A DNA stretch of 34,746 nt, taken from a virus. The position numbers and the translations under genes were made by a program. The stretch lies in UHGV virus genome UHGV-0079566; one strand, given 5' to 3'. The notes under the pieces were generated by a model, which saw nothing but the letters and a program-made list of their open reading frames with translations, had not been told where the DNA came from and did no database searches. Shown here piece after piece: positions 6,861-9,022 of the stretch (within the stretch, counting starts at the first letter, position 1; the number at the start of each line of letters is the position of its first letter).

Positions 6861-7367
6861 TTGAGTATTTTCAACCAACACGCACACCATGAACGTCCGT
6901 ATATCGTCATAGTTGATATTGATGGAACAATATCAGAGGCAACTGAAGACAGACTGCATTTGCTTCCGCCACCAGGTAAAGGTGCATTAACAAAGGACTG
7001 GAACGAGTTTAATCTCGCCTGTGACACTGATACTCCCATAACTCCAGTTATTGATATGGTGCGCCAGTTATTTAACGTTTACACGGTCTGGTTTGTAACC
7101 GGGCGCTGTGAGATCGCAAGGGATAAAACACGAGCCTGGCTGCGGAAGTACGTAACAAACGGGGCTGAGCCTTTGCTATCTATGCGTCCTGCCACCGATG
7201 ACAGAAATGACGGTCCAGCAAAGATTGATCTCCTGAAGAAAATTGGTCTAAGTAAAATTGCGTTCGCGCTGGAAGATAAGATTGAAGTGGCGCGTGTGTT
7301 CAGGAGTCACGGCGTACTTACATTCATGGTCAGGGAGTATGAAAATGCGCTTCTTCATCAACAATAA
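6861..7367 (+). CDS. HAD-superfamily phosphatase-like protein (168 aa), TTG start
   Basis: HAD motif I VIVDIDGTI (DxDGT) near the N-terminus; AGGAGGG Shine-Dalgarno just upstream of TTG 6861. Confidence 0.6.
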   Translation: MSIFNQHAHHERPYIVIVDIDGTISEATEDRLHLLPPPGKGALTKDWNEFNLACDTDTPITPVIDMVRQLFNVYTVWFVTGRCEIARDKTRAWLRKYVTNGAEPLLSMRPATDDRNDGPAKIDLLKKIGLSKIAFALEDKIEVARVFRSHGVLTFMVREYENALLHQQ

Positions 7368-7383
7368 TTGCTCTAATAAATCT
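7367..7383 (+). promoter_or_regulatory. C1-operator-like site ATTGCTCTAATAAATCT (15/17), followed by ttgattttta
   Basis: Read directly; the operator starts at the last base of the upstream stop codon; near-duplicate of the cassette at 23005-23031. Confidence 0.6.
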
Positions 7384-7415
7384 TGATTTTTAAGACAGGG
7401 GAAGTGAAAATAAAA

Positions 7416-7438
7416 ACATGCCGCAAGGCGCGGCATGT
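7416..7438 (-). terminator. Hairpin (9-bp stem acatgccgc/gcggcatgt, 5-nt loop) that has a U-run only when read on the minus strand
   Basis: Plus strand shows aaaataaaaa + stem with no T-run after it; the minus strand reads stem + TTTTTATTTT. Confidence 0.45.
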
Positions 7439-7465
7439 ATCCAATCAATCACAGGAGCTGAAAAT

Positions 7466-7552
7466 ATGAACACGGCATTCAAAATCATTATGGCCGCGAT
7501 CTATTTCTGGCTGTTCTCTATCACTTTTGGCGGCATCGTCGCACATGGGTAA
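7466..7552 (+). CDS. Small hydrophobic peptide (28 aa, MNTAFKIIMAAIYFWLFSITFGGIVAHG), probably single-pass membrane
   Basis: AGGAG Shine-Dalgarno 9 nt upstream; its stop is followed by the strong AAGGGGGA Shine-Dalgarno of the next gene. Confidence 0.35.
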   Translation: MNTAFKIIMAAIYFWLFSITFGGIVAHG

Positions 7553-7561
7553 GGGGGATGC

Positions 7562-8140
7562 ATGAAAGACGAAGTGAAAGAGCGCGGCATGATTTTCAAC
7601 GATGAGATGGTCCGGGCAATTCTTGGTGGGAATAAAACACAGACTCGCAGGATTGTTGAAGAAAAATTCTATGGACGGGCAGTGGCCGTAGAGTTGCTTG
7701 CTAAGCATTGTCCATATGGTCAACCGGGCGATCGTATTTGGGTTCGCGAAACCTACCGGGTACATGGCAAAGCGACGGACGTCGCAACGCTGGTTTATCG
7801 CGCAAGCGTGCGTAACTCCTGGACAGAACAAACGCACCGGGTTCCGGTCGAGGTTTGTAATAAACCAGTATCAGAAAAGTGGACGCCATCAATTCACATG
7901 CCGCGCTGGGCTTCGCGTATTTTGCTGGAAATTACCGACGTGCGTGTGGAACGGCTGCATGACATGAGCGAGGCAGATGCTAAAGCGGAAGGCGCATCTC
8001 CGGCGACGTACAAGATTACACCGCCGGAAGCTGTTTATCGCGTTGGTTTCGGTGATATCTGGCGCGGTATTTACGGGCAAGAGAACTGGCTATCTAACCC
8101 GTGGGTATGGGTAATCGAGTTTAAGCGCATTCAGGAATAA
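7562..8140 (+). CDS. Conserved phage protein, ASCH-like (PUA-fold) candidate (192 aa)
   Basis: N-terminal MIFNDEMVRAILGGNKTQTRR resembles the ASCH G-x-K-x-x-x-x-R signature; strong Shine-Dalgarno. Confidence 0.6.
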   Translation: MKDEVKERGMIFNDEMVRAILGGNKTQTRRIVEEKFYGRAVAVELLAKHCPYGQPGDRIWVRETYRVHGKATDVATLVYRASVRNSWTEQTHRVPVEVCNKPVSEKWTPSIHMPRWASRILLEITDVRVERLHDMSEADAKAEGASPATYKITPPEAVYRVGFGDIWRGIYGQENWLSNPWVWVIEFKRIQE

Positions 8141-8143
8141 ACC

Positions 8144-9022
8144 GTGAGTATGCATCAAGTTGTCAGCTTTTCAGGTGGACGAACATCGGCTTATCTCGTT
8201 CATCTGATGGAAGCAAAGCGAAAAGCTGGCGCTAGCGTCCATTTCATTTTTATGGATACCGGCTGTGAACATCCTCTGACGTATCGCTTTATTCGTGAGG
8301 TTGTGAAGTTCTGGAACGTACCGCTAACGGTGTTGCAGGTCGATATAAATCCAGAACTTGGGCAGCCAAATGGTTATACGGAATGGGAACCAAAGGATAT
8401 TCAGACGCGAATGCCGGTGCTTAAACCGTTTATGGACATGGTTAAAAAGTACGGTACGCCATACATCGGCGGCGCGTTCTGTACTGACAGGCTAAAACTC
8501 ACCCCTTTCACGAAATATTGCGATGACCATTTTGGGCGAGGGAATTACATCACATGGCTGGGTATTCGTGCGGACGAACACCGCAGGCTGAAACCGAAAC
8601 CGGGCGTCCGGTATCTTGCAGAGCTGTCAGATTTTGATAAGTCGGATGTTATCCGGTGGTGGCGAAAACAACCTTTTGATTTGCAAATCCCGGAGCACCT
8701 AGGGAACTGTGTTTTTTGCATCAAAAAGTCAACGCAAAAGCTGGGGCTTGCATGTAAAGACGAACCTGGTCTGATGCGGGTTTTTAATGAACTGGTTACA
8801 GGTAAACACGTCCGGGATGGTCACCGAAAGACAAATAAAGACGTTATGTACCGTGGTCATCTGAGCCTTGACGGGATTGCCAGAATGTATGCCGACAGCG
8901 ACTACAGAAATTTGTATCAGGCGATGGTGCAAACCAGGCGATTCGATACCGGCTCGTGTTCAGAGTCATGTGAAATCTGGGGTGATCAATTGGAGTTGAA
9001 ATTCGAAGAGGTGGTGGCATGA
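8144..9022 (+). CDS. PAPS-reductase-like (PP-loop ATP pyrophosphatase superfamily) protein (292 aa)
   Basis: PP-loop-like SFSGGRTSAY near the N-terminus; C-terminal cysteine pair (CSESC). Confidence 0.7.
   Translation: MSMHQVVSFSGGRTSAYLVHLMEAKRKAGASVHFIFMDTGCEHPLTYRFIREVVKFWNVPLTVLQVDINPELGQPNGYTEWEPKDIQTRMPVLKPFMDMVKKYGTPYIGGAFCTDRLKLTPFTKYCDDHFGRGNYITWLGIRADEHRRLKPKPGVRYLAELSDFDKSDVIRWWRKQPFDLQIPEHLGNCVFCIKKSTQKLGLACKDEPGLMRVFNELVTGKHVRDGHRKTNKDVMYRGHLSLDGIARMYADSDYRNLYQAMVQTRRFDTGSCSESCEIWGDQLELKFEEVVA

Follow-up and report, generated by a model that had tools for sequence, protein, structure and literature searches.

Do three neighbouring phage genes that lie on one strand, and whose products all belong to enzyme families acting on nucleotides or nucleic acids, work together? 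This question is raised by positions 6861 to 9022 of UHGV virus genome UHGV-0079566, of which 34,746 nucleotides (nt) were analysed (the window hereafter). Plus-strand open reading frames (ORFs) are present here at 6861–7367, 7466–7552, 7562–8140 and 8144–9022; they encode, in this order, a predicted HAD phosphatase (pap), a peptide of 28 amino acids (aa), an ASCH-fold protein of the PmgT family and a PP-loop enzyme of the NinC type. The original prediction, made from the sequence alone, was that all four are expressed from a single unit controlled by C1 and that the three enzymes could act on nucleotides or RNA during early infection. Our analysis points to another explanation, which we consider probable: this region would be the point at which the conserved backbone of a P1-like phage-plasmid meets a hypervariable accessory cassette, with two transcription units, independently assorting genes and activities to be sought gene by gene. 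What we see is a mosaic version of the pap/Op88/pmgT junction long known from P1, inside a published hypervariable region, and the three genes are ordinary shuffled accessory genes, not a joint pathway.

The window is that of a P1-like (Punavirus) phage-plasmid. Bases 6700–9100 match Punavirus genomes, the part from pmgS to pap being 94–97% identical to P1, P7, SJ46 and RCS47, and the entire stretch is 99.5% identical to the Escherichia coli plasmid pRHB26-C21_3, an IncY P1-like phage-plasmid. Gene by gene, the window is collinear with the annotated P1 and P7 genomes as far as the first gene past pap. It has its backbone in common with the pap-Op88/OpmgT-pmgT region of P1 and the pap-Op(hea)-upf86.8 region of P7: pmgS and pap are 96–99% identical, and the operator position and the 28-aa ORF are the same. 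The backbone gene pmgS (5525–6787, plus strand) encodes a conserved protein of 420 aa that matches phrog_1660 (E = 2e-195) and is 99% identical to PmgS/ShtB of P1 and P7; pmgR and pmgS rank with the best-conserved genes of P1-like phage-plasmids (PMC9603915). The first long gene after pap is of the same family in all three elements, the window protein sharing 44% identity, with insertions, with P1 PmgT and 83% with P7 Upf86.8. From there on the elements differ. In P1 the PmgT allele is longer and the genes pmgU and pmgV come next; in P7 the following genes are upf87.4 and one resembling tyrosine phosphatases. Neither annotated region contains the NinC-like gene of the window. P1-like phage-plasmids have eight published hypervariable regions, one of which runs from pmgT to humD (PMC9603915).

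A consensus pattern search returned 10 C1 operator-like sites in the window, as against 0.21 expected by chance. One of them, ATTGCTCTAATAAATCT (7367–7383, plus strand), agrees with the consensus at 16 of 17 positions, overlaps the pap stop codon and is the homologue of Op88/OpmgT of P1 and Op(hea) of P7; the P1 and P7 annotations have an operator at the equivalent position, with predicted promoters overlapping it. By transfer from the P1 annotation (offset 2700), a promoter region overlapped by the operator can be placed at 7368–7411 (plus strand), where it matches the predicted sigma-70 promoters P2pmgT and P1pmgT. Because this operator sits 3' of pap, pap is not controlled from behind it; the genes that follow it are only the 28-aa ORF, the ASCH-like gene, the NinC-like gene and those further downstream. 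The arrangement of a P1-type C1 operon, a 17-bp operator overlapping a promoter upstream of the genes, is thus found for these three ORFs and, at this operator, not for pap. The single C1-controlled unit originally proposed holds for the former and fails for the latter.

On its 5' side, pap is separated from pmgS by an intrinsic terminator (6807–6843, plus strand; stem-loop 6807–6836), detected by a terminator scan and recognizable in the sequence by its 11-bp stem, of which 6 pairs are G-C, and a T7 tail. Behind this terminator, no promoter for pap alone is obvious. A separate pap promoter is unlikely because just 24 nt lie between the terminator and the start codon, and this candidate was rejected on that short space together with the absence of a consensus promoter from the scan. 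Further upstream, a pair of C1 operator-like sites (5225–5241, plus strand; 5274–5290, minus strand) occupies the same positions as annotated P1 and P7 operators and is homologous to OpmgRa/OpmgRb (Op86a/b) of P1. By analogy, this pair would control the pmgR-pmgS(-pap) block. We therefore keep two units apart in the model that we favour. In the first, pap would be the last gene of a conserved pmgR-pmgS-pap block under the upstream Op86-type operators, reachable only through read-through of the strong terminator at 6807–6836. The second, C1-repressed unit would start at the Op88-type operator and the overlapping promoters directly past the pap stop codon and may be expressed early or upon induction; in this form, and by inference from C1 repression, the early expression originally suggested would stand for the ASCH-like and NinC-like genes. 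Its order would be a 5' hairpin, the 28-aa ORF, the PmgT-family ASCH-fold protein, the NinC-type enzyme, Ead/Ea22, DUF4752, a weak (sub-threshold) Mom-like match and DUF551, the genes presumably drawn from the pool that supplies lambdoid early-left and nin regions, assorting independently and sharing no pathway with pap.

The distribution of the three families shows such independent assortment, and their expected recurrence together in related phages was not observed. Among PLSDB plasmids, 649 are matched by pap and 75 by the NinC-like gene (64 of these at full length); just 15 records span 80% or more of the full stretch. P1 and P7 both combine pap with a PmgT-family gene and are devoid of the NinC-like gene. 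We then sampled 80 IMG/VR loci having a NinC-like gene at least 91% identical to that of the window, with a neighbourhood of 6 kb. Neither an ASCH-like gene nor pap was present within this distance at 67 of them; the other 13 are P1-like, and a PmgT-family gene ends 6 nt upstream of NinC in 12 of these. Conversely, among 80 diverse PmgT-family loci, NinC occurs at 1 and pap at 5, all of them P1-like. At the remaining PmgT-family loci the gene is located 3' of RecT-like, exonuclease and Dam genes and 5' of xis/int, which corresponds to the early-left accessory region of lambdoid prophages. Non-P1 DNA matches of the stretch come mainly from Stx-type phages with a NinC copy of about 90% identity; in Ss-VASD, the single Stx-type phage inspected, the NinC gene is found after RecT/exonuclease/SSB genes and before Ead/Ea22. 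Finally, P1 pap, pmgT, pmgU and pmgV and lambda ninC were individually non-essential in CRISPR interference (CRISPRi) screens (PMC10695390). Given these counts, the location in a hypervariable region and this dispensability, the trio is therefore not a conserved module.

Further cassette reshuffling was seen in three IMG/VR contigs of P1-like elements carrying humD (L006, L014 and L016; L006 also has phd-doc). In these, the ASCH and NinC genes together (in L014, only NinC) are located after genes for a 331-aa protein and a lambda-type Ser/Thr phosphatase, with no pmgS or pap within 6 kb upstream.

What each protein may do was examined separately. The pap gene (6861–7367, plus strand) has a TTG start and encodes a stand-alone phosphatase of 168 aa that is 96% identical to Pap of P1 and P7. 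The original call of a HAD phosphatase with a DxDGT motif was borne out: motif I is present as VIVDIDGTISE (residues 16–26), including the nucleophilic Asp, and Pfam HAD_PNKP (PF25109) is matched with 46.5 bits for a cutoff of 27.6 (E = 5e-12). Pap also matches phrog_415 (E = 1e-56), and its best PDB sequence match is the Pnkp1 phosphatase module (4xrp). It thus has the HAD family and the DxDGT motif in common with the phosphatase domain of T4-type Pnkp/Pnkp1. Unlike Pnkp, it stands alone: only the phosphatase module was matched in Pfam, PHROG and PDB searches, which did not detect the N-terminal P-loop 5'-kinase domain of bifunctional T4 Pnkp, and no ligase is found in the P1/P7 annotation or in Pfam scans of the surrounding genes. 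We infer from these similarities that Pap is probably a HAD phosphomonoesterase of the polynucleotide 3'-phosphatase type.

The PmgT-family gene (7562–8140, plus strand) starts 9 nt past the 28-aa ORF and encodes a protein of 192 aa. No family was assigned to it by Pfam at default stringency or by NCBIfam, PDB sequence searches with the single sequence and with a 59-sequence profile gave no match, and PADLOC matched neither this protein nor Pap. Below the gathering threshold, the Pfam ASCH model (PF04266) scores 16.1 bits for a threshold of 21.2 (E = 0.019), and weak matches to it occur in 36 of 59 homologues (best 2.4e-4). The protein can be assigned the ASCH/PUA-like beta-barrel fold, so that the original term ASCH-like is correct at the fold level, with Pfam ASCH itself remaining sub-threshold. 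A first homologue search had returned only relatives at least 94% identical and devoid of Pfam annotation; the diverse set of 59 was obtained by searching representatives. The family has 43,393 relatives at E<=1e-3, counted as 50%-identity cluster representatives.

The protein carries a motif G23-x-K25-x-x-T28-x-R30 and a glutamate, E143. In the 59 diverse homologues K25, T28 and R30 are invariant and E143 is conserved in at least 90%. This pattern recalls YqfB, an ASCH-domain N4-acetylcytidine amidohydrolase of E. coli with the motif G-x-K-T-x-T-x-R and an acidic residue, which is the only ASCH enzyme with a defined reaction and whose catalytic residues are Lys21, Thr24, Arg26 and Glu74 (PMC9599836). 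Counterparts of all four were found by alignment: a hhalign profile alignment, which covers the N-terminal motif only, places K25/T28/R30 on K21/T24/R26 of YqfB, and a pairwise sequence alignment places E143 on E74. The phage protein is about 90 residues longer than YqfB and has two conserved insertions, CPYGxPGDRxWVRE and WxPSIHMPRWASR. It may be a hydrolase with a YqfB-like Lys-Thr-Glu triad that acts on a modified, possibly N-acylated nucleobase. When the alleles of the window and of loci L002, L001 and L006-L018 are compared, the N- and C-terminal parts are shared and mainly a central segment varies. In PLSDB, this allele matches 25 plasmids at full length (at least 80%) and parts of it are matched by 404, a pattern that looks like cassette-style variation inside a single gene. 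One may speculate that the two insertions and the allele-specific central segment hold the substrate specificity.

The NinC-type gene (8144–9022, plus strand) begins 3–9 nt after the ASCH gene, depending on whether the GTG at 8144, giving 292 aa, or the ATG at 8150, where homologues start, is taken as the initiation codon. The product has an SGGxxS/T loop on a Rossmann-like fold (SFSGGRTS) and matches the lambda NinC family over its full length (phrog_33262, E = 3.5e-92; phrog_424, E = 4e-91). Pfam PAPS_reduct, the phosphoadenosine phosphosulfate (PAPS) reductase family, matches residues 6–72 only, and the closest solved folds are adenosine phosphosulfate (APS)/PAPS reductases, TilS, NcsA and TtuA. 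With the SGGRTS motif, the PAPS_reduct match and the two PHROG families, the original description as a PP-loop, PAPS-reductase-like protein stands. The PP-loop and six cysteines (113, 126, 189, 192, 272 and 276) are invariant in 40 homologues of 41–97% identity, and five of the six also in nine phage proteins down to 27% identity, which suggests that the enzyme uses ATP and has a metal or iron-sulphur (Fe-S) site. Its counterpart in the nin region of Salmonella phage Oslo, annotated as similar to lambda NinC, is 79% identical and has the same length, PP-loop and cysteines. The window gene differs from the Oslo type in lying in a P1 C1-controlled operon instead of a nin region and in not being preceded by a Dam gene; at the DNA level, it most resembles (about 90%) the copy that Stx/Sepvirinae phages carry in their early-left region. 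To our knowledge, lambda NinC has been without an assigned function since the lambda genome was sequenced.

Among the defence-related profiles of PADLOC, SspD gave the best match to the NinC-like protein (E = 1.4e-13), covering profile positions 2–121 of 277 only; DndC (E = 4e-4) and BrxP were weaker. SspD and DndC are ATP pyrophosphatases of DNA phosphorothioation that, like the NinC-like protein, have a PP-loop N-terminal half and a cysteine-rich C-terminal part. By its sequence the NinC-like protein is probably related to them and an Fe-S enzyme. In contrast to SspD and DndC, which reside in defence islands, it is encoded by a phage, and it does not reach the DndC equivalog cutoff (TIGR03183, 17.7 vs 290 bits). 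Pfam scans of the neighbouring proteins revealed no companion genes dndA/B/D/E or sspA/B/C. A Vibrio phage protein also resembles it: 96% of the query aligns, at 55% identity, with the N-terminal part of p0018 of Vibrio phage 44E38.1, a 'Dam methyltransferase with PAPS reductase domain' of 479 aa that has a twin in Vibrio phage 34E29.1 (L167). The PP-loop and all cysteines are kept between the two; the fused Dam domain of p0018 is missing from the window protein. A phage could escape Dnd of the host when the 44E38.1 PAPS-Dam gene was transferred together with a neighbouring gene (bioRxiv 10.1101/2021.05.05.442762), and PMC13551039 cites the anti-Dnd work for this escape. Other family members are fused to Dam or to MT-A70 methyltransferases, nin regions show a NinB-Dam-NinC order with 4-nt overlaps (L166, L174 and L175, with Dam-type PF05869 next to NinC), and methyltransferase genes neighbour NinC-type genes in phages Oslo, VchM-138 and RAP44. 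By analogy, the NinC-like protein likely acts on DNA together with adenine methyltransferases, in the evasion of restriction including phosphorothioate-based systems; a DNA-directed counter-restriction role is our best-supported guess. The linkage between NinC and methyltransferases is also a possible functional link for lambda NinC.

How do other explanations of the locus compare? That Pap, the ASCH protein and the PP-loop enzyme make up one co-transcribed module, modifying or sensing nucleotides or RNA early in infection, we regard as very unlikely, and the co-occurrence data already largely refute it. The genes are indeed adjacent on one strand, no terminator was found between pap and the next unit by the terminator scan, and the exact arrangement is seen again in about 15 plasmids; the part of the proposal that concerns enzyme type also survives, all three families being of the nucleotide or nucleic-acid kind. 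Joint function does not survive, since an operator and a promoter separate pap from the other genes, pap is far more widespread than NinC, the partners are missing at 67 of the 80 NinC loci and 75 of the 80 PmgT-family loci, and every gene is dispensable in P1 or lambda. A two-gene module of the ASCH-fold and NinC-like genes without pap, for example for successive steps of DNA modification or de-modification that protect the phage from restriction, also seems unlikely to us. It would account for the 6-nt spacing in 12 of 13 P1-like loci with NinC, which involves three divergent ASCH alleles (96%, 56% and 46% identity), the gap of 3–9 nt permits translational coupling, and both families adjoin Dam methyltransferases in lambdoid phages. 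Yet a PmgT-family gene occupies this position in P1-like elements with or without NinC, and the adjacency is therefore the default; the two genes were never found together outside P1-like elements (0 of 67 lambdoid NinC loci; 1 of 80 PmgT loci, itself P1-like), and L014 carries NinC without the ASCH gene. In a more elaborate form, which we hold to be quite improbable, the ASCH hydrolase and the NinC PP-loop/Fe-S enzyme, translationally coupled at the head of the C1-repressed operon, would act sequentially on DNA or a modified nucleotide as an early counter-defence against modification-based (e.g. phosphorothioate-dependent) restriction, the variable central ASCH insert setting the target specificity.

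Two further readings follow from database names. Entries called 'phosphoadenosine phosphosulfate reductase', the PHROG category 'moron, auxiliary metabolic gene' and the proximity of APS/PAPS reductases among solved folds would make the PP-loop gene an auxiliary metabolic gene, encoding a genuine PAPS reductase that would increase sulphur assimilation by the host. The scores against NCBIfam CysH/PAPS reductase models are far too low for this (21.7 vs 154 bits for NF002537, 14.8 vs 165 for TIGR00434 and 12.9 vs 254 for TIGR02057), the similarity is restricted to the N-terminal nucleotide-binding part, an ATP-type SGGRTS loop is kept where the aligned PAPS reductase has SSSFGIQA, and DNA methyltransferases are fused to, or coupled with, members of the family. 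This candidate, which on these four points we find highly improbable, was rejected. So was a role in virion morphogenesis, hardly credible in spite of the historical 'pmg' (putative morphogenetic) names and of P1 and UniRef annotations reading 'putative morphogenetic function' or 'Morphogenetic protein': the enzyme folds are unrelated to virion proteins, in lambdoid phages the genes occupy early, non-structural regions, and pap, pmgT, pmgU and pmgV can be dispensed with in P1.

Several observations weigh against our preferred explanation, the junction of two units with independently assorting genes, or against the activities that go with it. The two-unit picture is built on sequence and on the P1 annotation, and a simple promoter consensus scan of the region did not report the promoter at 7368–7411. 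Partial co-transcription is possible because there is no terminator between pap and the operator, so that read-through could continue once C1 is absent. The position of the ASCH gene directly before NinC in nearly all P1-like NinC loci leaves room for a two-gene relationship. The enzyme activities of all three proteins are deduced from folds and motifs: the GxKxxxxR of the ASCH protein is partly a general family signature, and the equivalence of E143 and E74 comes from a pairwise sequence alignment, not from superposed coordinates. As for counter-restriction, the effect of the 44E38.1 anti-Dnd cassette (Piel et al.) was demonstrated for two genes in Vibrio and not for the window protein, and when the window was searched by tblastn, no Dam (PF05869) gene or counterpart of the anti-Dnd companion gene turned up (nothing better than E = 0.6).

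The 5' part of the operator-controlled unit contains two small elements. A stable 9-bp hairpin (7416–7438, plus strand; RNA fold -17.2 kcal/mol, z = -3.5) lies at the predicted 5' end of the transcript; its minus strand resembles a terminator in the scan, and an Rfam search of leader and hairpin gave no credible family. The hydrophobic 28-aa ORF (MNTAFKIIMAAIYFWLFSITFGGIVAHG; 7466–7552, plus strand) has a good ribosome-binding site, an AGGAG 8 nt upstream. Of 17 P1-like loci compared, which comprise 13 distinct segment variants, 16 encode an identical peptide and the remaining one has one substitution, and the ORF shows 2 variable sites in 87 nt vs 9 in the 82 nt directly upstream, which suggests constraint. 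The annotation of phage SJ46 includes a membrane protein inside the matched pmgS-pap-ASCH-like stretch. Of the membrane peptide originally described, the ORF and its hydrophobic character are confirmed, and the putative coding sequence remains a candidate for a small membrane protein.

Past NinC, the gene order is Ead/Ea22, DUF4752, a second Ead/Ea22, a sub-threshold Mom-like gene and DUF551. The Ead/Ea22-like gene (9019–9723, plus strand; Pfam Ead_Ea22, E = 8e-25) overlaps the NinC stop codon and is the next gene of the operator-controlled cassette. A C-terminal module (PATDAFLAE[IV]RA ... QLRKGG.Q) is common to its product and to a 244-aa protein encoded two genes on (10007–10741); the second Ead/Ea22 gene is located at 10738–11232. 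Mom is a DNA adenine hypermodification enzyme, and the Mom-like ORF (11229–11726, plus strand, 165 aa) matches Pfam Mom below threshold (23 bits vs a cutoff of 27.1, E = 7e-5); PADLOC gave no match for it. Seven more C1 operator-like sites, with 1–3 mismatches, are found at window positions 1601, 18184, 22458, 22922, 23005, 24566 and 25043.

The interest of the locus rests on two leads at the level of families, PmgT/ASCH and NinC, both of which are testable in P1, lambda and Stx phages. The PmgT family, very large and with no Pfam entry of its own, has an ASCH fold in which the catalytic residues of an N-acyl-cytosine amidohydrolase are kept. Lambda NinC, for its part, shares its family with the PAPS domain of a phage protein that has been linked to evasion of Dnd, and this family is repeatedly fused or coupled to adenine methyltransferases.

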